From: a virus
Lineage: Duplodnaviria > Caudoviricetes
Virus record (IMG/VR): IMGVR_UViG_3300005076_000002
Span: 32,001 to 96,000 of that record
Reading direction: 5' to 3' (one strand)
DNA: 64,000 bases
How positions within the stretch are numbered: position 1 is the stretch's first letter; every line of letters begins with the position of its first letter. Shown here piece after piece: positions 33,799 through 53,965 of this stretch. The notes beneath the pieces were generated by a model. It saw nothing but the letters and a program-made list of their open reading frames with translations. It searched no databases and had not been told where the DNA came from. Position numbers and translations under genes: made by a program.

Positions 33799-35910
33799 AT
33801 GATCCTAAGACGATCAGACTGGGCTTTCTACCCCGACGCAGTCTATGACCTCAATACCAACAATGAAAGCTTTCTAAAGCTTGCATTTATCCATAGAGAG
33901 CTCGGGGTTAAAGAATGGTATTTGTGTCTTGCATTGACACTCCCCGAACTTTCTGGGGTTAATCCGCACAGTTCCGGTTTGGACTTTGAAACCAAGACCA
34001 AGATCTCCTATGAGATGATTGACAACTTCTGGTATTACTTCCGTGAGGTAGCCAGAGTTCCGCAAGACGGTGGCGACCCAACACCATTTGGCATACATCG
34101 TGGTTCGTTTGCTCTTTACTGGGCATTCTTCAACAACATCGACGTGGCGCTACTTCTTATCCGTCAGCAAGGTAAGACAGTGGCCGTTGCTGAGCTGTTA
34201 GTTTATCTAAAACGAACCCTACGCGGTGCGCGTACGATTCTTATGACACGTGGTTCGGATCTGCGTATTGAAACCATTTCGAAGATGAAACAGATACGGG
34301 ATGAGCTCCCTCAATATCTGTGGAAACATTCAAGAGATGATGCCGACAATACGGAGTCATTTACCTATGTAGCACGCGACACTAAACTGATCACGTGTAT
34401 TGCGCAGAACAGTGCTGAAGCGGCATTGTCTGCTGGCCGGGGACTAACCACTCCCAGACTCTTTAGTGATGAAACGGCCTTTACTAAATTCATTCGTATC
34501 ATGCTGCCAGCGGCATTGGGTGCGGGTACTACTGCACGCCGTAATGCCGAATCTGCCGGTATTCCATATGGGAACGTGTTCACTACAACGCCTGGTAAAC
34601 GGGATGAGCCTGACGGCAAATTTGTTTATGACATGTTCCACGGAGGCTACTTCTGGGACGAGAAGCTTATTGACATACCAACGCGTCAGGAGCTGATCGA
34701 TTACATCAACCGAAACTCTACGGGTGACCGTACACTTCTTCATGCGCCGTTTACGCACCGTCAATTAGGCATGACTGACCATGAGCTGTATAAGGCCATG
34801 GCTAACGCCGGTGGTACTTATGAAGAAAAGCTCCGTGACTACGGTCTTCAATGGACTGCTGGTAGTCTGATGTCTCCTCTCACCGTAGAGGAAGCAGAGA
34901 CTATTCGTAAGAGTCTTGAGGTGCCGAAGTACCTGGAGATTTGCAAGGGTAACTATATCATCAAATGGTATTACCCTGAACACGAAATTGCAGAAAGGCT
35001 TAAGGTAAAACATATCATCGGTCTGGATACATCAGATGCAGTAGGCCGCGATGCTATCTCGTTTGTCATGATCAACTCTGAAACGTTGGAAACAGCGGCG
35101 ACGTGTGTGGTGAACGAGAGTAACCTCGTGGTCTATGCTAACTGGTTAGCCGACGTGATGATTCGTTATACGGATACAATCTTGGTTATCGAACGTAAGT
35201 CGAGTGCCCCTACCATGATTGACACCTTACTGCTGAAGCTTCCGGCTAAGGGTATTGACCCATGCCGTAGGCTTTACAATGCCATTGTACAGAAACGTGA
35301 CGATGGTGATGGCGACCTCATTACTTGGCAACGCATGCGCAAGCCCGGTAATGATAGTTTTTACGATATCTATCGTAAACACTTCGGCTTTGTCACTACT
35401 GGGGCTTTACGTGACAATCTTTACTCAGACACCCTAAAGAACGCGGTGAAAATCGCGGGCAAGAATCTGCGGGACAAAACGCTGGGTAATGAACTGCTGG
35501 CGCTCGTCATTAAGAATGACCGTATTGACCACAAGGCCAGCGGCCACGATGACTGTGTTATCGCATGGCTAATGGCGTGTTGGTTCATGTTTTACGGGAG
35601 GCGCTTGGACTTTTACGGCGTGTCAAATAAGATCCTCATGAAGAGGCAGTGGATTCATGCTGAAGGTGGGGATTTTGACGAAGCCGAACTTCTCAGGGAA
35701 GAGGAAGAACAGAGGGAGATCGCATCTGAAATCGACGTGCTCTGTACTGCGATTGCTGGAACACGATCACCTTATCTTAAAACAACTTTGGAGCGACAGT
35801 TACGTGTTAAACTCAGCCAGCTCCGGCTTGATACCAGTCAAGCCTCGACTATCGCTGAGTTACAGGAACTGATACGTAACGAGAAGATCAAAACGAGGTA
35901 TCTCTCATGA
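33799..35910 (+). CDS. terL: Terminase large subunit (phiKZ gp25-like)
   Basis: Walker A IRQQGKT, GRGLT, Walker B LFSDE, TTTPG, nuclease GLDTS and GHDD motifs. Confidence 0.93.
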   Translation: MILRRSDWAFYPDAVYDLNTNNESFLKLAFIHRELGVKEWYLCLALTLPELSGVNPHSSGLDFETKTKISYEMIDNFWYYFREVARVPQDGGDPTPFGIHRGSFALYWAFFNNIDVALLLIRQQGKTVAVAELLVYLKRTLRGARTILMTRGSDLRIETISKMKQIRDELPQYLWKHSRDDADNTESFTYVARDTKLITCIAQNSAEAALSAGRGLTTPRLFSDETAFTKFIRIMLPAALGAGTTARRNAESAGIPYGNVFTTTPGKRDEPDGKFVYDMFHGGYFWDEKLIDIPTRQELIDYINRNSTGDRTLLHAPFTHRQLGMTDHELYKAMANAGGTYEEKLRDYGLQWTAGSLMSPLTVEEAETIRKSLEVPKYLEICKGNYIIKWYYPEHEIAERLKVKHIIGLDTSDAVGRDAISFVMINSETLETAATCVVNESNLVVYANWLADVMIRYTDTILVIERKSSAPTMIDTLLLKLPAKGIDPCRRLYNAIVQKRDDGDGDLITWQRMRKPGNDSFYDIYRKHFGFVTTGALRDNLYSDTLKNAVKIAGKNLRDKTLGNELLALVIKNDRIDHKASGHDDCVIAWLMACWFMFYGRRLDFYGVSNKILMKRQWIHAEGGDFDEAELLREEEEQREIASEIDVLCTAIAGTRSPYLKTTLERQLRVKLSQLRLDTSQASTIAELQELIRNEKIKTRYLS

Positions 35911-36257: not shown

Positions 36258-36536
36258 ATGATCCCGTCCTATGATAAAGCAATTGAATGCGGCATCAAAG
36301 ACCAATCTGTTCGCATTCCTGGACTGGGTGTAGTACCGTCCTATAAGGGCAGTGCCTACATCCACATTGATGGTCGTGTATACCACGCCATCGGTTTTCC
36401 TGCCGTAGTAGTCGGCAACAAACTGGTATCGAATGGTTATATCGATATCCAACGTATCAAACATCCCGCCGCTGCCACGGCTAAGAAGGAGACCTCCGGC
36501 TTTAGCCTGGGCAGGTTTCTTGGGTTTGCATTCTAA
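36258..36536 (+). CDS. Early hypothetical protein
   Basis: TAAGGAG SD. Confidence 0.7.
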   Translation: MIPSYDKAIECGIKDQSVRIPGLGVVPSYKGSAYIHIDGRVYHAIGFPAVVVGNKLVSNGYIDIQRIKHPAAATAKKETSGFSLGRFLGFAF

Positions 36537-36553
36537 CAATGAGGAAGAGTAAT

Positions 36554-36676
36554 ATGTCTAATCGTGAACTGCTCAAACGAGTTAAGTCTGATCTCTCAAA
36601 TCAGTCCCAGGGAGCTGCTAACTGGAAACTTCAGCAGCAAAGAGAACGCACTAAGAGTAAGCCTAAGCTGCCATGA
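36554..36676 (+). CDS. 40-aa basic early peptide
   Basis: GAGGAAG SD; MSNRELLKRVKSDLSNQSQGAANWKLQQQRERTKSKPKLP. Confidence 0.5.
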   Translation: MSNRELLKRVKSDLSNQSQGAANWKLQQQRERTKSKPKLP

Positions 36677-36767
36677 TGGCTTATGGCTTCCTAAGTATAC
36701 CCTTAAGTGCGTTTAGGAAGTGTTAATCCCGTGGCCGTAATGGCTTAATCTAGTGATGGAGTAAATA

Positions 36768-37571
36768 ATGATTACAATCGATTTGAATTCCTACAATGTG
36801 GATGGATTCGTGCCCGGTGAACTGGCCCTGCAAATGCATGGCGATGGCGGATACCTTAACGTAAAGTTAGTCAAGGGTATGTTCGTGGGAAGTTGTCGGA
36901 TCTACTTCCCTGGCGAAGATAATCCTATCGCCATAGTAGTCCCCACCGCCGGCGTTTTCACGCAGGCAGACTTGCACATTCCGATATACAACGCCCTGAA
37001 CTGGATGCTGAGCGCGTTGTCTGTAAAGATCAGCTACGCCACTAACGTGGTAGGTACCTACCTCCTCCAGCGCTTCAAAGACGAAACCGGCATCGATTTT
37101 GAAAACGCACTGATCATGGAGGAGCTCACACGACTGCGTGAAGAACTCCTCCTGGCCGAGCCCATCGCTCACCGACTGCCGGAGGCTGGGACCGCCATCT
37201 CCCTGCCCGGTCTCGTTATCAAGTATAACGACATGCGCTTCCTCGTAAACGAGCGCTGGGGTGTGATCGGGGATTTGGGTGCCATCGGTAGCCATCGGGG
37301 TGGACGGACGATCGGTACGTTCTTCCGACCGAACGTAGTGCTGACTCTGAAATCGCTGGCATACGACGTGGACTTGTCGGCAATCGCACCGTACGACTTG
37401 ATCGGACTGATCGACAACTACGCCGAAATGGCTCGTAGCATCGAAAACGACGTCCTCGGTGACCGTCGTGGCAGACGCGAGCGCAGTCGCGAACGCGAGC
37501 GTGGCTCACGTAGTCTCAGTGACGATCGTGATGACCATGAGCGTCCTGGTCGCGGTACTCGCGGCCGGTAA
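36768..37571 (+). CDS. Early hypothetical protein with an Arg/Glu/Asp/Ser-rich tail
   Basis: GGAG SD; C-terminus DRRGRRERSRERERGSRS...RGR. Confidence 0.75.
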   Translation: MITIDLNSYNVDGFVPGELALQMHGDGGYLNVKLVKGMFVGSCRIYFPGEDNPIAIVVPTAGVFTQADLHIPIYNALNWMLSALSVKISYATNVVGTYLLQRFKDETGIDFENALIMEELTRLREELLLAEPIAHRLPEAGTAISLPGLVIKYNDMRFLVNERWGVIGDLGAIGSHRGGRTIGTFFRPNVVLTLKSLAYDVDLSAIAPYDLIGLIDNYAEMARSIENDVLGDRRGRRERSRERERGSRSLSDDRDDHERPGRGTRGR

Positions 37572-37572
37572 A

Positions 37573-37614
37573 ACAAATAAAAAGCAGGGGCCCGAAGGCC
37601 CCTCTTTTTTTTGC
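37573..37614. terminator. Bidirectional terminator, repeat copy 2
   Basis: Same hairpin as 22899-22945. Confidence 0.85.
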
Positions 37615-37616
37615 CT

Positions 37617-38933
37617 TTATTTGTACTGGTTTGATGCCAAAGCCCGCAGGAGGAAATAAAGCATCAGGGAACTTCTCGCAGAAGCCAATGCGGCAGATGA
37701 ACGCAGGTGGCTATTCTTTTTAACGAACTTCTCAATGCGTGAACGCAATTCCAAAAGCAGTGGGTCGGATGTTTTAGACGACATATACAGCGCTTTCATC
37801 TTGATGAGGATAGCACCGACGTCGTTAAAACGCACGCGGTTCTTGGCGATATAATCGAATGCATGCAGGAGGGTATTCTCCATCATCCACTCAATCTCCC
37901 GCCGTTCTTTACCTTCCGGCGCCCGAGCGATGGTTTGCAGCAAACTGATAAACGCGTTCTCGGATACCGACGTCATCAGTTTAAGCACAACATCAATCAG
38001 ATCGCGTTTGATGAAACTGGCTTCGTTACCGGAAACATCAAACAAGTAATAGCGGGCTGTGTTGTAAGCACTCACCTGATCTTTGATGATCTTATCCCCA
38101 TCCATCGACAACATGGTTGATGAAGTGGACTGGATACGCAGGTTACCTCGACGGACGTTATCGAGCACACCGTACATATCAATGATCGTACCTTTGGAAC
38201 GTGTCTGAAGGTCGGTGATAATACGAGTTACTGCCATGTCGTCGGCGAACTGTTTGAGCGGTTTATAGCGAATGCTGTCAGGCGCAATCAAACGCTCTCC
38301 ACGGTCGCGCATCAGTGCGCCCCAGCTACCTAGTTGCTTAAGAGCAAACTTAAGCGTAAGGGCCGCATAGGTGGCTTCTGCGGCATCTTGGTCTACAGGC
38401 TTAGCAAAGAAGTTGTACCAGATAGAGGTGTAGAACTTGAACTGGAGTACCACAGCTGCTTCGATCATTGCCTCTTGTGCCAGCTTGTCATTGGCGATAG
38501 ACGATACGAGCAGGCGATGGATTACCCAGATACAACTCAAGTTGAAGGGATCCGAGGCTACTTTCCAGTCCGTGTTCAGATAGTTGGTAGAGTGAACACA
38601 CTCGCGGAGATATTCTTCATCAATGCCAAGGACCTCATCAAACCAACGATTCCGATCGGCATCTAAGAACTTGATGCGTTCTACGCCAAGAAGGTTACCG
38701 CCAAAGAAACGGATATGGTCATCGTTTTTGGTGGCGAGGTTCTTGCTGTAGGAAATAACCGCCTTAGCGAGTTTAGCGTTACCTACGACATCCCCTGCGG
38801 CTTCCTCGAAAGCTTCGCGAAGGGTGGCATACTTAACACCAGAAGGTTGGTCTATCGCTTCTAAACCTGGACTCTTGGGACTGAACCCACCAGCAAAGGC
38901 TGAGAATGCGGCTAACGTCTTTTCAAACGGCAT
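37617..38933 (-). CDS. Conserved virion/head protein (phiKZ gp32-like)
   Basis: DHIRFFGGNLLG, V.SDPFNLS, KFALKQ.GSW motifs; ATG 38933 follows GAGGA with a TATG motif just upstream; N-terminal PGLE|A site. Confidence 0.7.
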   Translation of the reverse strand: MPFEKTLAAFSAFAGGFSPKSPGLEAIDQPSGVKYATLREAFEEAAGDVVGNAKLAKAVISYSKNLATKNDDHIRFFGGNLLGVERIKFLDADRNRWFDEVLGIDEEYLRECVHSTNYLNTDWKVASDPFNLSCIWVIHRLLVSSIANDKLAQEAMIEAAVVLQFKFYTSIWYNFFAKPVDQDAAEATYAALTLKFALKQLGSWGALMRDRGERLIAPDSIRYKPLKQFADDMAVTRIITDLQTRSKGTIIDMYGVLDNVRRGNLRIQSTSSTMLSMDGDKIIKDQVSAYNTARYYLFDVSGNEASFIKRDLIDVVLKLMTSVSENAFISLLQTIARAPEGKERREIEWMMENTLLHAFDYIAKNRVRFNDVGAILIKMKALYMSSKTSDPLLLELRSRIEKFVKKNSHLRSSAALASARSSLMLYFLLRALASNQYK

Positions 38934-38951
38934 TGTCAATTCCTCATAGTT

Positions 38952-38982
38952 AAAAACTTTTCAGGCATATGTTATCTGAGTG
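38952..38982 (+). promoter_or_regulatory. Early-type promoter
   Basis: AAAAACTTTTCAGGCA-TATGTTATC-TGA-GTG. Confidence 0.6.
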
Positions 38983-39020
38983 AAGTTAACGTTGTAATTC
39001 AATTAATTGGAGCCCTAACC

Positions 39021-39797
39021 ATGAATTTCATCGCGTCCAACCGTGCTGCTTTTAACCGTGATTTCGAGAACGGTTATATTAGCAACATCAGAGTTATGGT
39101 AAAACCGACCGGAGTCATTTGCTACGTCGACAGTATCAACGGCGTAACAAACCTGCACAACGGATCGACGCATCTAGTAAACGATGCGCTATCATCAGCG
39201 CTGGCGAGAGCCGGGATATATGGTTGGGTACTCGTGCATGCCCGCGACGTACCTCGTGTCACCAGCAAATGGCTGACATACAACCTCAACAAACTCCCGC
39301 TTGAGGAGTGGGCAAGTAGTCTTGTCGTGTATACCTTTGGGCAGGACCTCAGCGATTATGATTTAACGTCATTACCGTTCGAGGTTAAACCACTGGAACT
39401 GGAAAATATAGATGACGGGATATCATCTATCCTTTCAAAGTACAGCCACGACATGGCTTTTGACGGACTGATAATTTCAGCCCTCAATAAAATCAAGGGT
39501 GAGGTCTTCTATAAGATTCTCCCCAATCGGGTAACTCCAGCCAAAATCGTTGCCGTTGGCACCGGACGAGGCGGTAAAATAACAAGTCTGATCGTGGAAA
39601 CAAACCACGACGGTAAAGATTACGTAGTGAACGTGGCGTCGATTCCCAGCTGGATTAAGGAGACCGCTGTCTACCGATATCGAAATAAGTTTATCGGTGG
39701 TGAGGTTGAGCTCTCATATACCTCTTTTAATCCTGGGGATCGAATTAAGAATTTCAGTAGTCCGGCCATCACATCGGTTCCGGCAGTAGACCTCTAA
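39021..39797 (+). CDS. Degenerate ATP-dependent DNA-ligase-like protein
   Basis: VKPTGVICYV (motif I-like), FDGLIIS (IV), YKILP (V), OB-fold-like IVAVGTGRGGK..SLIV...IGGEVELSY. Confidence 0.45.
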   Translation: MNFIASNRAAFNRDFENGYISNIRVMVKPTGVICYVDSINGVTNLHNGSTHLVNDALSSALARAGIYGWVLVHARDVPRVTSKWLTYNLNKLPLEEWASSLVVYTFGQDLSDYDLTSLPFEVKPLELENIDDGISSILSKYSHDMAFDGLIISALNKIKGEVFYKILPNRVTPAKIVAVGTGRGGKITSLIVETNHDGKDYVVNVASIPSWIKETAVYRYRNKFIGGEVELSYTSFNPGDRIKNFSSPAITSVPAVDL

Positions 39798-39806
39798 GGA
39801 GGGAAT

Positions 39807-40178
39807 ATGGATTTACCTGTAGCACGCATTGCCAAAACGAACGTACGTATCGTTGATGGCGCTATTGAACTGGTCGACGGTGTATATGACGACACACTGC
39901 TCGGTCTTCATTCCACCTACGTGTACAGCGGTTGCAACGTAGCCGTAGTACGTGAAAAGAACCGCTTTGCGATTTATCGCGTGGCAAGCAACTATGACTA
40001 CGAAACGATGAATCGTCGGATCGTCATGGTCAAGCTGCGTGAGAAGCTCGCAGATGCTGGTATCGAACTCGTTGACTTCGGCCTGCTCTATCAAAAGGTA
40101 GATGGCTGGTATGTGAACGGTGTACCTATCAGCATGTACATCGAAAACAACAAGCGCTACTGCGCGCTTAAACACTGA
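39807..40178 (+). CDS. Hypothetical protein
   Basis: AAGGAGG SD. Confidence 0.75.
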   Translation: MDLPVARIAKTNVRIVDGAIELVDGVYDDTLLGLHSTYVYSGCNVAVVREKNRFAIYRVASNYDYETMNRRIVMVKLREKLADAGIELVDFGLLYQKVDGWYVNGVPISMYIENNKRYCALKH

Positions 40179-40288
40179 TATATCAGGCCTCGAAAGAGGC
40201 CTGCCTTATTCATGCCATAACGGCATAAAGCCCCTAGGTGCATTTCGCACCTAGGGTTATACGAAGCTATTGGTTTTATGGAGTAACA

Positions 40289-40717
40289 ATGAAAGCTTTG
40301 ATATTCGCTATTTTGACTGTACTGTCTTTTGGGGCCGTAGCCGATAACACTTATACCGAAGTGTTGAAGGTGTGGAACAAGTCCATTATTCAGAATGATC
40401 AGGATAACACATTGTGGTGTAATGAGTGCAATACTCAGCCTGATAAATATACAAAGTTTACCGGTGATGCGCTCACCGGGCCGATTAACCCGTGGTACAT
40501 GGCAGGGCCGACGTTGATAGCCCGTGTAGATACAGGTGTTATGTGCCCGAGCGGAGATTGGTTTGCAATCGATACTTACTCGCATCGAATCGTGCAAATC
40601 AAGCTGGCTAGCTGCAAAGAGATTTCGCCCGTGGTTATTGCGAACCCTCACAGCATTGAATTCAAGTTCTCCCAGGACGGGAAGAACTATCGAGTCGTCT
40701 TCACAGACGAGTCGTAA
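40289..40717 (+). CDS. Exported protein with a Sec signal peptide
   Basis: MKALIFAILTVLSFGAVA|D; four Cys; GGAG SD preceded by TATG. Confidence 0.75.
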   Translation: MKALIFAILTVLSFGAVADNTYTEVLKVWNKSIIQNDQDNTLWCNECNTQPDKYTKFTGDALTGPINPWYMAGPTLIARVDTGVMCPSGDWFAIDTYSHRIVQIKLASCKEISPVVIANPHSIEFKFSQDGKNYRVVFTDES

Positions 40718-40751
40718 AAGCTAGGGGCTCAGGCCCCTAGTTCTTTTTTTT
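40716..40751. terminator. Bidirectional terminator
   Basis: AAAAG-CTAGGGGC-TCAG-GCCCCTAG-TTCTTTTTTTT. Confidence 0.8.
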
Positions 40752-41349
40752 GTGTCCGGTGGTTTGGGATGAGGCCACTACTTTCGCGCTGCGCATCGGC
40801 TGCCGTATTTCGTGACCCCATCCCTCGCCGGATGTAGATTGTGTTTTATGCCCCAAGCCTAGTACCTGTCGTAACTTGCTAGCGTGTCCAATCAGCGGGA
40901 CGGTACCCTTTCCGAGGACCTGATAGCCAGCGAAGAGGCGGCGACGGCCGCTTTGACTTTCCAATGACTTGTTACAGACATGACCACCTGCAACGGTCAG
41001 AACCGGGCGCAAGGTGTTTTACAAGTTACCGTCGGTGCCAATCGGAATCCACCGTCTTGGCTTGTTGTACCCCTCTGGGGCCGATAACCGTGTCCACAAT
41101 CCACAGCACCGCTGAGGCGACTAATCTGCCTGACCGAGGCTACCAATCGCGGGAGGGCGATACGGAGGCTGCCTGAATGTTCCAAGGCTTGCCGAACTGA
41201 TCTATTCCATCCCACCCCTCTAGACCCACTTCACCGTGCGGTTTGAATGCAGGGGAAGACTAGGGGGCATGGCCGACGCTTCCATTCAGCGACTGCCTAC
41301 GGTTCTCGATCTGTGTTCGGTTTGATTTTTGTCGACACAACGTTTCTGC
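40720..41349 (-). ncRNA. Putative ~600-nt structured non-coding RNA (unknown family)
   Basis: No credible ORF; nested helices whose mismatches become G-U pairs only on the minus strand; TATG at 41352-41349 and a terminator at ~40720. Confidence 0.6.
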
Positions 41350-41690
41350 ATAGTATACACACACAAATGTAATTTTTTACATGGTTTGTATTTTATATAG
41401 TTTCTCGATACAGGGTTTTGATACCCTGATCGGTTGTTTCGTGTATTGTTTCAATTAGTGCGTGTGTACGCGTGCGCGTGTTATTATTATTTTTACTATC
41501 CGTAAGGATAAGTAAAAATTAAAGATTAAAAGAAGTAAGGAAATAAATATATAAATATATTTATTATTTTTATACGCGTTGCGTAGGCACGCACGCGGAA
41601 TAGAGAAGGGGATTATTTTTGATCTCCGATAAGATAATTTAAATCTATCGGGAGATTCAAAATTAATCCTTGGATATTCTTCGGATCAGA
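41350..41690. other. AT-rich, palindrome-dense intergenic region (candidate origin or pac site)
   Basis: Inverted repeats at 41489-41519, 41542-41565 and 41610-41669; CGCGTGCG/CGCACGCG pair flanking the AT core. Confidence 0.45.
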
Positions 41691-41694
41691 CAGT

Positions 41695-42273
41695 TTGGAC
41701 AGTACGGAAAATACTAAACCAAAATTTCGTGAGATTAAACCTCACGAAAAATCTTTGATGATAATCCGAACGCGCGAGGGCCGGCCGGTTTTTTTTAACA
41801 TGGGTGGGTTATATTTTGCAAGAACCCACAAGCGAGGATCCGAGATGCGAACACTCACCCCCAGTGCGTTCGTCTTGGAATGCCTTGGTGGCATGGTCTC
41901 AGGACGGAACCTGAAACCGAATTCCAATTTGATTGCCCATGTTATGCGCAAAATATTCACAGCCCCCTCAGCCACTCCGAACGACGAATACGTGGTCGTA
42001 GGCGTGCCGTTTTACAATCTCGATTACGGAATCGATGCGACCGGCATTGCCGTCGAGGAACTGTTCAACGGCGAAGCGGATCTAGTCAACGGTCAGAGCG
42101 CTGAAGCGATCGTCGGTGATATTCTCCAGATGTACTTGCTCCCCATAGCCAGACCTGGGGTTAGTCAAGCACAGATCAGATTGAACACCGCGTTTTGTGA
42201 TACCATGATAAACCACCTGATCTACTTCGGGTACTGGTATCGGATGGATCACTACTCGAACGAGCTCCACTGA
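41695..42273 (+). CDS. Hypothetical protein (start uncertain; TTG 41695 or ATG 41758)
   Basis: Long ORF with protein-like composition, in an operon with the next gene. Confidence 0.65.
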   Translation: MDSTENTKPKFREIKPHEKSLMIIRTREGRPVFFNMGGLYFARTHKRGSEMRTLTPSAFVLECLGGMVSGRNLKPNSNLIAHVMRKIFTAPSATPNDEYVVVGVPFYNLDYGIDATGIAVEELFNGEADLVNGQSAEAIVGDILQMYLLPIARPGVSQAQIRLNTAFCDTMINHLIYFGYWYRMDHYSNELH

Positions 42274-42286
42274 TCGGGGGTGGAAC

Positions 42287-42697
42287 ATGAGACAAATCAA
42301 TTTGGTCGCTATGCTATGTGAAAATCCCAAATCGCTGGCTTCGATGGCTAACCTCGATCCTACGGATCAGAGAACACGCTGTTACAAACGGGCAGTAGCT
42401 ACCCATGTCGCTGTAGAGGAAGCTTGTGGTCGCATAGCAGAGCTCGGCAAGCTTAGCGGCACCGTAGAACTCGATTGGGATACGCCGTATTGTGATCGGC
42501 TCGGTAAACGCCGGGAAGATCGCGTCACTAAGATCATCGAAGAGTCCATCGAGAGCGGTGGAAACGATCCGATCTTTGCAGTGACACATGCCGTAAGACA
42601 CTTCGTAGTCAAAGATGTATCGAAGATGTCCGATGACAAGTCTAATGAATACATTCGGAAGATTGTCAACGGTATTGTAACCAGAACACGCTCGTAG
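42287..42697 (+). CDS. Hypothetical protein
   Basis: GGGGGTGG SD; terminator at about 42738-42770. Confidence 0.7.
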   Translation: MRQINLVAMLCENPKSLASMANLDPTDQRTRCYKRAVATHVAVEEACGRIAELGKLSGTVELDWDTPYCDRLGKRREDRVTKIIEESIESGGNDPIFAVTHAVRHFVVKDVSKMSDDKSNEYIRKIVNGIVTRTRS

Positions 42698-42781
42698 TAC
42701 GCGCTGTGTGCAGATGTCAGTTTACTCTGTTTATTAAGCTCTAGGGGCTTGTCCCCTAGAGCCTTTTTTCTTTTTTTGTTT

Positions 42782-43597
42782 TTATACGCCAGAACGGCCA
42801 GCACGTTTGGTATGGATCATACCACGTTGCGGATCCATGAGGATCAAGATCTTCGACCATTTCTCATTGAGCAGGGTGTTATAGACCTCGAATGCATCGC
42901 GGTATTCATCTACACGTTCACGGTAGCGTCCGAGTTCACGACCGCCATCGAGTTTGAACTGTTCGATCTCCAAATCCAGCTTTCTGAAAATAACGACCTT
43001 AGTGGCCGCCAGAACGAGTTGACAGAAATCCTGGTAGTAGGGTCGAGTAAGTTCGCTAAAGTCGCTAGAATAAGCAACCAGGCACGATAGCGTGGTGTCC
43101 GAGGTGAAGTTCTGGAAGTCACGGATCTTGATCACGTTATCGTTCAAAACTTCGATCTGAGCGTTAGCAATATTAGGCACAGGGCGCCAGCTATTGATAA
43201 CACGTTGACCGGAACGTTCGATAGGCGCTACGAAGTTGGTGTTGTTCGTAAGGCCGGGTTGTCGCTCGGCAAAGTTACTGGTTACGTTCAGCGTAGACTT
43301 AAGAACCTGCACGATCTCACGATTGAATGTAAGGGCGTACGGGATCTTGTAGATACGCTCGTAGTTGGGGCGCATCTCCCACTTAAGGCCTGAGAGATTG
43401 ACGTCTACAAGCACACCACCGATAGTGGCGATATCGGGCATTACTTTCTTTTCAATTACCTCCTCGCGGATAGCTTGTTCGATAGAACGACTTACCCGAC
43501 GCAGTCGATCTGATTTAGGGATGAACGCATCCATGAGGATACGGTCAGGTATATCTTGATTCAGAACGTGTCTGATCGCGAATGAAAAGGCGTCCAT
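42782..43597 (-). CDS. Conserved late/virion protein (phiKZ gp42-like position)
   Basis: ATG 43597 follows AGGAGG with TATG upstream; IP..IL..AF, A.K..IF, LDGG.ELG..R..V..Y.DA motifs. Confidence 0.65.
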   Translation of the reverse strand: MDAFSFAIRHVLNQDIPDRILMDAFIPKSDRLRRVSRSIEQAIREEVIEKKVMPDIATIGGVLVDVNLSGLKWEMRPNYERIYKIPYALTFNREIVQVLKSTLNVTSNFAERQPGLTNNTNFVAPIERSGQRVINSWRPVPNIANAQIEVLNDNVIKIRDFQNFTSDTTLSCLVAYSSDFSELTRPYYQDFCQLVLAATKVVIFRKLDLEIEQFKLDGGRELGRYRERVDEYRDAFEVYNTLLNEKWSKILILMDPQRGMIHTKRAGRSGV

Positions 43598-43694
43598 GGG
43601 ATCCTCCTGTATGGTACATAGAATCGGCCACAAAGCTTCCTATGCGTTAATAATTACATAAATGAAATCATATGTGGAACAGGGGTAGGGGTTT

Positions 43695-43725
43695 AAAAAT
43701 GATTTAGCAATATATTATCTAGATG
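43695..43725 (+). promoter_or_regulatory. Early-type promoter for the small-gene cluster
   Basis: AAAAA, then TATATTATC at 43711-43719. Confidence 0.6.
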
Positions 43726-43750
43726 GTAACCAATCTTAAGAGGCTTTAAC

Positions 43751-44104
43751 GTGGATAGCCAGACATCATTGTTGTCTTTCAATAGCAAAGAATATTCAGT
43801 TCCATTCATGGAATACGTAAAAGAGCATGAGATGGATTTTGAATGTAGTCGACAAGAACTGTTTATGGCTGTCATTATCTTAGCCGTAACCGAATACTGT
43901 AACCTTACCATCTCCGCAAAGCTATACGGTAAGATTTTCTCTGTACGTGACTACAATCGATACCTACTAAGAAAGTGGGTTATTAATTGCTTTCTCCCCG
44001 TCGAATACCATAAGTTAAGAAGAACCTTTTCTAACTGTGATAGTATCGAAGACATTCAGTTTCTAGGAGGATCGCTATATGCGGTCACCTCAACCTTAAG
44101 GTAG
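43751..44104 (+). CDS. Hypothetical protein (small-gene cluster)
   Basis: GTG start after GAGG. Confidence 0.6.
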   Translation: MDSQTSLLSFNSKEYSVPFMEYVKEHEMDFECSRQELFMAVIILAVTEYCNLTISAKLYGKIFSVRDYNRYLLRKWVINCFLPVEYHKLRRTFSNCDSIEDIQFLGGSLYAVTSTLR

Positions 44105-44109
44105 ATCTA

Positions 44110-44820
44110 ATGAGAGTCGCTTTTGACGTCCAGCATATTTACGACCATGTAGTAGCAGATCTCAGAAACTCTAAGTGCTTGTTAAATATACCTTTTATCG
44201 ATAGAGTTATGACTTATCGGGAGTATGAAAACCTCGAATATATAGATGCAGGTAAGGATCTTTCTACTCGCGAGCTGACCGCCACTAAACGTACCATGGA
44301 CCGATTAGTAAAAGAGCTAAGCCGCGAGATCCTGGTCTACTGCTGTTATAGCCACTTCCTTTCAATACCACCTGGGATAGAGCGCATGCTCATCAAGCTA
44401 TTTGATGATCTGTTTATCCCGACCAAGGATAGGCAACGGCGTACTATCGATAACTCACAGGCTTTAGGTTTTTACGCGTTGTCTAATTCTGTTGCCGAGG
44501 GCATGGCCGCTATAGACCAGCACAACTTTGATCGTTGGGCTATTGCCAACTTAGAATTTAAAGGTAATTCTGCTATCCTTACCGTCGGTAGGAATCTTAA
44601 GGATTATCTCTTTGAAGAAGCCCATGGCAAGGGTCGTTGGCGGGGAGTGCAATATTTCCCTACTGGCCGAGCTGAAGTTATTGAAGATGAAGAACGTGTA
44701 GCAGACGATCTTCTGTCATCGCTGAGTAAGGTCACAGACTACGATGCAAGACCTAAAGGAAGACCAGCCACAAAACCATGGCGTATACGTCGCCGCCCCC
44801 GTCGTAAGAATCTACTATGA
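44110..44820 (+). CDS. Hypothetical protein (small-gene cluster)
   Basis: TAAGGT SD. Confidence 0.7.
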   Translation: MRVAFDVQHIYDHVVADLRNSKCLLNIPFIDRVMTYREYENLEYIDAGKDLSTRELTATKRTMDRLVKELSREILVYCCYSHFLSIPPGIERMLIKLFDDLFIPTKDRQRRTIDNSQALGFYALSNSVAEGMAAIDQHNFDRWAIANLEFKGNSAILTVGRNLKDYLFEEAHGKGRWRGVQYFPTGRAEVIEDEERVADDLLSSLSKVTDYDARPKGRPATKPWRIRRRPRRKNLL

Positions 44821-45133
44821 GCCATTAGACATACTCGAACGTTTCAGTAGCGTCGTAGAGTCATTGGGATTCTTTCTAGACAATGAGACGACTATTGAGT
44901 TGTTCATGGTTTTGTTTGAGCTCTACGTTGACTATTTCAACCTAGAGGGGCGTCCCGATATTAATCTGGCGGCTAGATGTTATCTGCCAGATATCGAAGA
45001 TGCGGAGGTGTTAGTTATCTCTGCCTTTGTTCGGGACTTCCTAAATAGAATGATAAGTCGTGAGTCAGTCACGCAGATAATAGACTTTAAATTTACATAT
45101 AGCTGCTTTTCTATTTTAGCACGTGTGGAGTAA
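44744..45133 (+). CDS. Hypothetical protein (overlaps the previous gene by 77 nt)
   Basis: Fills the gap before 45137; protein-like composition; start uncertain. Confidence 0.55.
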   Translation: MQDLKEDQPQNHGVYVAAPVVRIYYEPLDILERFSSVVESLGFFLDNETTIELFMVLFELYVDYFNLEGRPDINLAARCYLPDIEDAEVLVISAFVRDFLNRMISRESVTQIIDFKFTYSCFSILARVE

Positions 45134-45136
45134 ACG

Positions 45137-45589
45137 ATGAAAAATAAACTAATACGGCTGATGTTTGACCGGGAGTATACCGGCGAACTCAGCTTTGACC
45201 TCAATGAGTATGACCTCTATGAGGATTACAAAGTAAACAACTTCGAAGTTATGACTGCCATCATCATGGCTATCTTGCACGACCTCAGCACTGTAGACCA
45301 GCGTCTGCATATCAGTACCTTTAGCCACAACGCCATCCAGTCAGAGCTTATAGATTTGTTTACGAACTCTGTCGGTCCCAAAGACGATGATTGCGAACCG
45401 GATGGTATTCAGCGCCTGGCCAATATCGATTATCGGAAGATTCGCGAGTTGGCCGTAGAGCTTAGCCAGCTACCTTCCATTGAACCGCTCTACATGGCGT
45501 TGAAGCGTGGTACGCGCGGTCTCAGATACCATCCCCATTCGGTCAGATATGTTCATGACAACATAATCGTCTATATCACTGAAAAATAA
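45137..45589 (+). CDS. Hypothetical protein (small-gene cluster)
   Basis: GGAG SD. Confidence 0.7.
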   Translation: MKNKLIRLMFDREYTGELSFDLNEYDLYEDYKVNNFEVMTAIIMAILHDLSTVDQRLHISTFSHNAIQSELIDLFTNSVGPKDDDCEPDGIQRLANIDYRKIRELAVELSQLPSIEPLYMALKRGTRGLRYHPHSVRYVHDNIIVYITEK

Positions 45590-52099: not shown

Positions 52100-53965
52100 A
52101 TGTCCTTCACTACTGGTGAAAACGAAAACAAAACCATCAACGACGTTCAAGCTGCTGACAAGGGCAGTGAGCGTAAGCCGCGCAAACCTCGTGATGAACG
52201 CGATGCACCGATCCGTCAGAATACCGGCCGCATGGCCAGTTTCCGTAACATCGGCGAGTACGGCCGCGCCGAAGAAATGCACAAGACCTACCAAGAGATC
52301 GTCAAGACTCAAGGTGGTATCGCTGGTGAACTGCTGCCGGTAATCGGCGACGTCCGCCGTGAACTTTCCGATGAGTTCGGCTACCTCATCTACCTGACCC
52401 AGCACGCCGGTGAAACCTTCTGGCACCTGCTGGTTCTGGAATCCCAGAAGTGCCCGGTCATCAAGCGTCCGGTGAACGACCGTGGTGCTCGTCGTCGCGA
52501 TGAAGACGTGTACGAGTTCTTCACCACCACCGATGGTATCACCGTCGAGCTCAACGAGCTGATGGAAGACTACATCAAGACCGCCGTCGAAAATGCCGGC
52601 AACCTGGTTGCGACTTCCGTAACCGTTGTTCCCTGCGAAATCGACGTCACTGATCCGCTGGCTATCCGTCCGTTCCTCATGTCTGCTGACGAAGCCAACT
52701 GGACCATCGCCGGTATCGACGATCCGTTCAACGGCGACTACCTGCCCGAAGGCGGTTCCGTACGCGGTAGCCTGAACTTCCAAGTCGGTGCCACTGCAAA
52801 AGACCTGTCCGGTCAGCCGCTGCGTGCCGACTTCGTCGGTTCCATCCGTGAACATCTGGAGCGTACCAACCCGAACCTGCTGATGGCCAACGACAAGGGC
52901 GACACCTTCGTAACCTTCGCCGGTTACGTTGATGCCCGCTACGTCGGTGTGCGTGACGATGGCGATCGTCGTCGTCGTCGTGACGAGGAAGTCGAGACTG
53001 CCTGCTTCGCCCCCGAAGTAGTCATGACCGAAGTCGACCTGTACCACGAAACCAAGAACGGCCCGCTGGCCCGCCTGGCTCTGGCACTGTCCTTCCTGCC
53101 GCAACTGAACACCAACTTCCGTTGGGTTCAGCAGTTCGCTCCTTCCACCGCGAAGAACCAACTGCGCGACATCACCGGTTTCGGCTACGGTTTCGACCCG
53201 GATGGTCCGATCGCCCCCGATCGCATCCTGGCCACTGCCGAAGATCTGCACGATGACAAGACCTTCAACCGCCTGCTCGACAAGATCTTCGACACCGAAG
53301 ATGGCGTCGACTTCGCATACCTGATTCGCGAAGGTGGTGTTGGTTACGCAACCGCCAAGGTTCTGATCGACCTCTACAACGGCTCCGATGCCGCCGAAGA
53401 TGCTCTGATCCAGGCCCTGGATGATCTGACCGACAACGAGTTCTCCCGTCTGTGGAACAAGGTCGAAGACCAGACCATCGTCGCTGATGTGCTGCGTCTG
53501 CCCAACGGCTACTACACCGCCGAAGACGGTATCCGTCCGATCGAAGACATCGACATGCTGGCAGTGCTCAACCGCCTGACCAACAAGAACGATGACTACC
53601 TGGACGACTACCTGGCCTGTACCACTCCTGGTGACGACTGCCCGTACGACTACAACGAGCGTATGACCCGCCTGGTCGCGATCTACGACTACGTTACCGG
53701 TCGTACCTTCGTCCAGAAGGGTGTGTCCACCAAGGTCTGGTTCGGTTCCGACTTCCTCGAGTGCGTCTTCGCAGCCGTGGAGCGTTCCGATCTGGCCCTG
53801 ACCATGGACGTGGATGGCGATTCTTCCTTCGGTCGTCGTTCCCGTGCGGTCTCCCGTCGTCACGGCGTCGCCAACAACCTGGCCCGCCGCGAATCCCGTC
53901 GTCACAACTCCCGGACCCGCTCCGGTGGCTACGTTAACACCAGCTACCGTCGTGGTGCCCGCTAA
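52100..53965 (+). CDS. chmA: Chimallin, phage nuclear shell protein (phiKZ gp54-like)
   Basis: 621 aa; GQPLRADF, GYVD, LPNGYY......RPI.DID.L motifs; extreme codon bias; between the gp52-like and nvRNAP beta' genes, with its own promoter and terminator. Confidence 0.88.
   Translation: MSFTTGENENKTINDVQAADKGSERKPRKPRDERDAPIRQNTGRMASFRNIGEYGRAEEMHKTYQEIVKTQGGIAGELLPVIGDVRRELSDEFGYLIYLTQHAGETFWHLLVLESQKCPVIKRPVNDRGARRRDEDVYEFFTTTDGITVELNELMEDYIKTAVENAGNLVATSVTVVPCEIDVTDPLAIRPFLMSADEANWTIAGIDDPFNGDYLPEGGSVRGSLNFQVGATAKDLSGQPLRADFVGSIREHLERTNPNLLMANDKGDTFVTFAGYVDARYVGVRDDGDRRRRRDEEVETACFAPEVVMTEVDLYHETKNGPLARLALALSFLPQLNTNFRWVQQFAPSTAKNQLRDITGFGYGFDPDGPIAPDRILATAEDLHDDKTFNRLLDKIFDTEDGVDFAYLIREGGVGYATAKVLIDLYNGSDAAEDALIQALDDLTDNEFSRLWNKVEDQTIVADVLRLPNGYYTAEDGIRPIEDIDMLAVLNRLTNKNDDYLDDYLACTTPGDDCPYDYNERMTRLVAIYDYVTGRTFVQKGVSTKVWFGSDFLECVFAAVERSDLALTMDVDGDSSFGRRSRAVSRRHGVANNLARRESRRHNSRTRSGGYVNTSYRRGAR

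Follow-up and report, generated by a model that had tools for sequence, protein, structure and literature searches.

Does the longest gap between genes in this jumbo phage genome specify an RNA, and if so, of what kind? The question concerns a DNA stretch of 64,000 nt (the window), which corresponds to bases 32001-96000 of the 219,689-base, 92% complete IMG/VR record IMGVR_UViG_3300005076_000002. Positions 40718-41694 of the window are the largest stretch without a 100-codon open reading frame (ORF) in the 219.7-kb genome. A first reading of the letters (the original prediction) had proposed that part of this gap specifies an undescribed, structured non-coding RNA (ncRNA) of about 600 nt, encoded by the minus strand, in a phage that forms a nucleus. 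This proposal is supported by base pairs that covary, indels that break the reading frame, promoter conservation and contigs from RNA libraries, and the gap very probably specifies a stand-alone ncRNA of about 600 nt in a wastewater clade of nucleus-forming phages.

Conservation and fold of the gap

The gap had been described as GC-rich and poor in ORFs. The second property stands, and the first is only modest, the G+C content of the RNA part being 56% versus 49.5% genome-wide. Orthologs were reached by way of the gp42-like protein, which led to metagenome contigs of close relatives, and the resulting alignment A4 comprised seven sequences from four lineages (the window; L011/L012; L037/L038/L057; L055). 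Relative to the window, each relative carried 9-15 indels, none of which was a multiple of three in length, and no ORF of at least 30 codons was common to the orthologs; a conserved protein is therefore excluded. The RNA was approximately 80% identical across the four lineages, a degree of conservation matching that of the adjacent gene (0.80 versus 0.78), and 394 of the 622 alignment columns were invariant, including runs of 12-23 nt. In the full structural model, 98.8% of the cells paired, and 18 pairs had changed on both sides compared with 9.6 ± 1.7 in shuffles (0 of 500); slid controls gave at most 3 such double-change pairs.

The helices of the original prediction, drawn up without homologs, constituted a blind test of the structure. 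Helix 40766-78/40812-24, now the long stem of the 3′ domain, remained paired despite three double and four single changes, one lineage having lost two pairs; the proposed extension 40755-59/40828-32 retained only 2 pairs in relatives and was not supported. Helix 41173-79/41283-89 was supported and, because it crosses other helices, is a pseudoknot (PK1). As drawn, helix 41215-23/41260-67 paired only after a shift of register, and in the form 41214-22/41260-68 it was supported by four double changes. The core (40837-43/41095-101) of helix 40834-43/41095-104 was invariant in relatives, and the two helices predicted to be nested within it (40850-55/41076-81 and 40871-79/41021-29), two of the seven first proposed, were broken in relatives and are replaced by 40981-76/40853-48, which has two double changes, and 41087-82/41031-26. 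Three double changes were also observed in a long-range helix newly found here, in which the 5′ end pairs with 41103-41126. With the helices of the 5′ domain numbered 1-13, the double changes there come to 2, 1, 4, and 1 in helices 2, 3, 9, and 12, respectively. At 41203, all four sequencing runs have a variant that re-forms a G-C pair broken in the window. Together these results show a minus-strand gene without coding capacity, whose RNA has a three-domain fold with one pseudoknot.

Promoter, boundaries and transcript contigs

The original prediction had bounded the RNA by the TATG at 41352-41349 and by a bidirectional hairpin. The TATG was upheld, TATG or TGTG being found at the equivalent place in all distant relatives. 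An AT-rich block upstream was conserved with a spacing of approximately 16 nt to the TATG in L011-L036, and the combination of block and TATG, which occurs once in the genome, was found in each of the relatives inspected, as far away as the SPN3US-like phages. Late promoters of phiKZ carry TATG from −3 to +1 as their motif, and the motif of its middle promoters is AT-rich, weak and centred at −24 (PMC7598289). The TATG agrees with the late timing that had been proposed; with the middle-type block, middle/late, for a non-virion polymerase, would be a better label for the promoter class than late. At the other end, the hairpin was not bidirectional: it (40719-40742) had a terminator score on the plus strand only, being one of 12 similar hairpins genome-wide, and its minus-strand U-tract was eroded in relatives. 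The 3′ end of the RNA was therefore placed within 40716-40760; an RNA extending through the hairpin to 40716 would be approximately 634 nt long.

Contigs of four runs were placed on 36501-45500 (9 kb). Metatranscriptome X7 had a single contig (40782-41331) and metatranscriptome X10, from a separate study, had two (40873-41185 and 41158-41326), with nothing else in the 9 kb; the 5′ contig stopped 18 (X7) and 23 (X10) nt short of the predicted +1. Run X1 is probably DNA, and its flanks were covered as well as the gap. In run X2, which can only be presumed to be RNA, a contig at 40861-41316 had a depth of 97 versus 2-6 on the flanks; genes cannot be ranked by such depth. Part of the stretch is also contained in runs X3-X6, X8, X9, and X11-X22, which do not count as evidence here. 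These contigs give a weak hint of a stable, discrete transcript, well above the neighbouring mRNAs.

Several points weigh against a structured minus-strand RNA. Only four independent lineages were available, and the pairs were counted on the very alignment that had yielded the consensus structure, which makes the counts partly circular; the contigs give neither strand, ends nor level. Moreover, the shuffle test of folding energy proposed with the original prediction went against it: single sequences had z-scores from −0.5 to −2.1 and did not separate from shuffles (with the terminator, −1.9 on the minus and −1.7 on the plus strand; without it, −0.5 on both). Because folding energy alone did not set the sequence apart from shuffles, comparative evidence was needed for the ncRNA case, and this evidence outweighs the energy result. 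The RNAalifold covariation term, which is less circular than the pair counts, was +3.4 for the minus and −4.4 for the plus strand, against −4.1 ± 2.2 once columns were shuffled, with −0.9 to −2.5 for two flanking genes as the control. Column-shuffle z-scores were discarded and the covariation term alone was used, as coding controls likewise scored −3 to −5. The minus strand is fixed by this term and the promoter, not by the argument first given for it, that plus-strand A-C mismatches in the stems are G-U wobbles on the minus strand; at least four such A-C positions exist, but two of the four lie at unconserved positions or in unconserved helices.

Table 1. Coordinates of the predicted RNA, its parts and neighbouring features in the window
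Feature	Position	Strand	Remarks
Large structured ncRNA, ~600 nt	40752-41349	minus	Alignment A4, pair counts, RNA-library contigs
5′ domain, closed by pairing of the 5′ end with 41103-41126	41103-41349	minus	Helices 1-13
Inner helices of 5′ domain	41319-41307/41203-41193 and 41268-41260/41222-41214	minus	
Pseudoknot PK1, loop 41288-41283 with 41179-41174	41173-41289	minus	U-A to C-G in L057, to U-G in L055
Variable hairpin with C-rich loop	41146-41161	minus	One double change (A4 columns 196-216); different loop sequence in L011 and L055
Central domain, closed by 41101-41095/40843-40837	40837-41101	minus	Closing helix invariant
Helices of central domain	41087-82/41031-26, 41013-02/40997-87, 40981-66/40859-48	minus	Plus five long invariant runs
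3′ domain, long stem 40824-40812/40778-40766	40766-40824	minus	
TATG start-site motif	41349-41352	minus	Predicted +1 is G at 41349; invariant in alignment A2
AT-rich block, −30 to −20	41369-41379	minus	Resembles phiKZ middle-promoter motif
Terminator hairpin of convergent plus-strand gene, possible 3′ boundary of RNA	40716-40751 (hairpin proper 40719-40742)		Scores on plus
AT-rich, palindrome-rich element, candidate origin or packaging site	41420-41690		CGCG-rich inverted arms 41458-71/41581-94
Convergent 142-aa gene, 3′ neighbour	40289-40717	plus	No known family
Divergent 142-aa gene, 5′ neighbour	41845-42273	plus	No known family
Large terminase gene	33799-35910		4.8 kb from RNA, in same conserved block

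The phage and the same slot in its relatives

As judged by its chimallin gene and conserved core block, the window phage belongs to the Chimalliviridae. The chimallin gene, at 52100-53965, is divergent: it was found by Pfam only (PF25677, 44.8 bits, cut-off 27), neither a PDB search nor tblastn with queries from Goslar and RAY having detected it. This gene, an RNA polymerase beta-prime fragment encoded in the window, the terminase and the homologs of phiKZ gp32 and gp42 together indicate a jumbo phage of the nucleus-forming kind. The gp32 and gp42 homologs lie on opposite sides of the gap, where they had been predicted. The nearest cultured phages were the Vibrio phages pVp-JHP1101 and pVa-21, with only 46-54% identity in these proteins, and the runs containing the stretch were mostly from wastewater and bioreactor samples. 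No match to the Goslar PhuZ query was found in this genome.

A 267-aa gene at 36768-37571, 3 kb from the RNA, ends in an Arg/Ser/Asp-rich low-complexity tail and may encode an RNA-binding protein; it belongs to no PHROG family. At 39021-39797 lies a homolog of SPN3US gp263 (a putative DNA ligase by annotation elsewhere), here just 258 aa long and followed by a 123-aa ORF. Three further ORF-free gaps of 540-820 bases were observed outside the window (G000 C1:184995-185812, 212189-212741, and 167350-167889).

Directly upstream of the promoter lies the AT-rich element, which holds the lowest-GC 200-mer of the genome; cumulative GC skew marked no origin and showed no switch at the locus. The element adjoined the promoter in all relatives and was also observed in SPN3US-like, Miami, VB_ZK_P1, YC1, phiKp_32, and BUCTxx100 phages. 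The order of element, promoter and GC-rich non-coding stretch recurred in relatives at 54-62% protein identity, some of them with tandem promoters. Like the window, SPN3US-like, Erskinevirus, and Machinavirus phages have the AT-rich element, a promoter with AT block and TATG, and their own covarying RNA of approximately 560 nt with a pseudoknot candidate (L036:17495-18068, minus strand; L062, L063, L064, L065). This is different from the window in that the whole unit is inverted and is followed by a same-strand gene and tRNAs. The SPN3US-type RNA had no Rfam match and, whichever of the two RNAs supplied the model, no cross-match to the window RNA. Profile hidden Markov models (HMMs) and three covariance models detected no homology of the window RNA with its slot-mates in L013, L017/L020, L018, L024, L026, and the SPN3US-like phages, a result that neither demonstrates nor excludes homology among the slot RNAs. 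In Miami and VB_ZK_P1 the element is followed by just about 300 nt of non-coding DNA, and in the phiKZ-like phage fnug and in Goslar no gap larger than approximately 310 nt was present in the corresponding interval. Since such a gap is missing from Goslar and the phiKZ-like phages, the function of the RNA is probably accessory.

Other arrangements were also seen in the slot. The pair L017/L020 gave a sense-strand covariation signal, from two sequences only, and L017:8235-9010, L020:9261-10200, and L023:9270-9447 contain two tandem TATG-started units with a highly conserved block of approximately 100 nt, which probably represent a third family of RNAs. Further RNA candidates are the gaps at L018:3320-6251, L024:8780-9244, L026:2740-3716, and L013:9340-9903, which are 0.5-2.9 kb long, follow the AT-rich element and contain between one and three middle/late promoters in tandem. 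In pVp-JHP1101 the slot is occupied by a 380-codon gene between two AT-rich blocks (L001:5508-6650), and an HNH endonuclease is encoded nearby (L001:2016-2717), as it is here in several Erwinia phages. Additional 1.2-kb non-coding gaps lie near tRNA genes in an SPN3US-like phage (L036:15269-16463) and in RAY (L035:13909-15178).

Possible roles and comparison with known RNAs

The promoter motif suggests that the phage's own non-virion RNA polymerase would fire from the middle/late promoter by the AT-rich element, and that transcription would take place inside the phage nucleus, beginning in mid infection. The transcript would then fold into its three domains, with at least one pseudoknot, and, being stable, would accumulate. 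By analogy with the phage RNAs ROOL and GOLLD, we tentatively suggest, at somewhat below an even chance, that this stable RNA may act through its shape, either as a self-assembling RNA particle or as a scaffold for phage or host proteins. Two results count against the analogy. For multimerisation, the only long loop-loop candidate, a 14-bp kissing pair between 41056-42 and 40915-899, was not upheld, since it is invariant, has a local alternative (a hairpin with a G-U/G-C change), and was matched by 62/200 and 23/200 shuffles. The typical tRNA-island context of ROOL and GOLLD is likewise absent, ARAGORN having found no tRNA gene in the 219.7-kb, 92%-complete record.

That the gap holds no functional RNA, and is instead the mRNA of a small protein, a DNA-level element or read-through junk, is highly improbable and already largely refuted: ORFs of 70-91 codons are present in the window and the folding energy is ordinary, but the indels break the frame in every comparison with no common ORF left, the covariation is strand-specific, and the RNA-library contigs are confined to the gap. 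Coupling to replication is unlikely. The AT-rich element would in that case be an origin or packaging start, opened by the promoter next to it, and the RNA would prime, regulate or gather replication proteins, loosely like ColE1 RNA II, which is a structured RNA by its replication function and is similar in length to the window RNA. Element, promoter and GC-rich stretch do share one order in L011-L026, and SPN3US-like phages have them inverted as a unit, the promoter is kept where the RNA sequence diverges (in tandem in several relatives), and middle-type timing would suit replication. Transcription, however, runs away from the element, whereas a primer RNA runs into its origin, where it forms a hybrid; besides the lack of a GC-skew switch and the short non-coding DNA in Miami and VB_ZK_P1, no 14-nt match of the RNA was found elsewhere in its own genome.

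A trans-acting regulator or decoy, which would mask ribosome-binding sites with its C-rich loop in the manner of RNAIII or, as a sponge, sequester a defence or RNA-binding protein of the host, is a fairly improbable role. The hairpin at 41146-41161 exposes a C-rich, anti-Shine-Dalgarno-like loop in 5/7 sequences, long unpaired runs are invariant, and phages that form a nucleus have to move RNA out into the cytoplasm; against this, the loop varies in L011 and L055, no long complement is present in the phage genome, and GGA (12, with 3 ANGGA, in 598 nt) is at chance level, so that a CsrB/RsmY-type sponge is rejected. The terminase gene in the same conserved block, the TATG late motif and the loop-loop pairing of PK1, which could be intermolecular, would fit a packaging or virion RNA that rings the portal motor through loop-loop pairing, like the packaging RNA (pRNA) of phi29, or is carried in the head. 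We consider this improbable, since the phiKZ-like and Goslar interval has no such gap though motor genes are common, and the long kissing candidate is not significant; pRNA, which binds the prohead and is required for packaging, is approximately 170 nt long and, to our knowledge, is known only for phi29-like phages.

A broader and speculative proposal, itself unlikely, is that a single cassette, composed of an origin-like AT-rich element, a conserved phage-polymerase promoter and a fast-evolving ornate RNA of about 600 nt, is common to a large group of nucleus-forming phages, and that its RNA serves as a functional component of the phage nucleus, as a cage or scaffold linked to replication, packaging or the organisation of the genome. 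If true, it would be a bacterial-virus counterpart of the architectural long non-coding RNAs of eukaryotes. As the same slot in cultured phages such as SPN3US has another structured RNA, knock-down tools that already exist allow the function to be tested. The adjacent AT-rich element also offers a lead to the replication origin, on which no paper turned up in the literature search.

Comparison with known RNAs agreed with the claim that the RNA is undescribed. In Rfam, no match at the gathering score was found in the window (at E ≤ 10, chance-level microRNA and small nucleolar RNA hits only) and none at the relatives' loci. ARAGORN detected no transfer-messenger RNA (tmRNA) in the record, and blastn against INPHARED gave no match to the RNA. 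Single-query protein-seeded locus searches in viral contigs returned nothing, exact motif scans found none in viral contigs or GTDB genomes, and the 10 matches to a gapped pseudoknot pattern were at chance level, none scoring with the profile. Open-literature searches on jumbo or nucleus-forming phages and large structured RNAs, with subscription papers outside their scope, yielded no description.

The three classes to which the original prediction could not match the RNA were likewise unmatched here. tmRNA was rejected by ARAGORN and Rfam and has no conserved (tag) ORF to support it. RNase P RNA had no Rfam match, and a word at ~40962 that resembles GGAAAGUC was not preserved in relatives. 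Group I and II introns had no Rfam match, the flanking genes are intact and point away or converge, and a word of the 3′ stem that resembles domain 5 lacks conservation. Words resembling signal recognition particle RNA, RNase P, intron domain 5, tmRNA, and CRISPR repeats, picked out by eye, were not conserved across lineages. Membership in ROOL, GOLLD, OLE, raiA, or other large RNAs of Rfam was excluded by the lack of a covariance-model match. ColE1 RNA II and phi29 pRNA differ in that the window RNA is transcribed away from the AT-rich element and has no sequence or model match to them (for pRNA, none in Rfam); no RNA I-like partner was found.

Non-coding RNAs of nucleus-forming phages described so far in phiKZ and 201phi2-1 are 90-250-nt fragments of untranslated regions (UTRs), the phiKZ candidates being 5′UTR-p40, PHIKZ297/298, and the gp182 leader (PMC8545117, PMC10914365, PMC11512511). 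The window RNA is alike in being a non-coding RNA of such a phage; the phiKZ candidates have two hairpins, whereas it is stand-alone, multi-domain and about 600 nt long. The closest resemblance in kind is to ROOL (RF03087) and GOLLD (RF01998). ROOL (env-120) is 659 nt long, pseudoknotted and phage-borne, can equal 16S rRNA in abundance, and forms homo-multimeric cages through intermolecular kissing loops (PMC12286853); GOLLD is likewise pseudoknotted and phage-borne, can reach the abundance of rRNA, and forms cages. The window RNA shares with both the size class, the many helices with pseudoknots (here 18 double-change pairs and the covarying PK1), and the phage origin; the two are also reported to be highly abundant and have no known function. 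It is unlike them in sequence and topology, with no Rfam match at E 10, and in its setting, a lytic nucleus-forming phage with a phage-polymerase promoter and an adjoining origin-like element. Large ornate phage RNAs are among the few RNA classes without a known job, and those described are mostly from prophages or temperate phages. The window RNA, belonging to neither ROOL nor GOLLD, appears to be an undescribed, new family among them, in the setting of a lytic, nucleus-building phage with its own polymerase, a group for which the literature covered holds short UTR-derived RNAs only.
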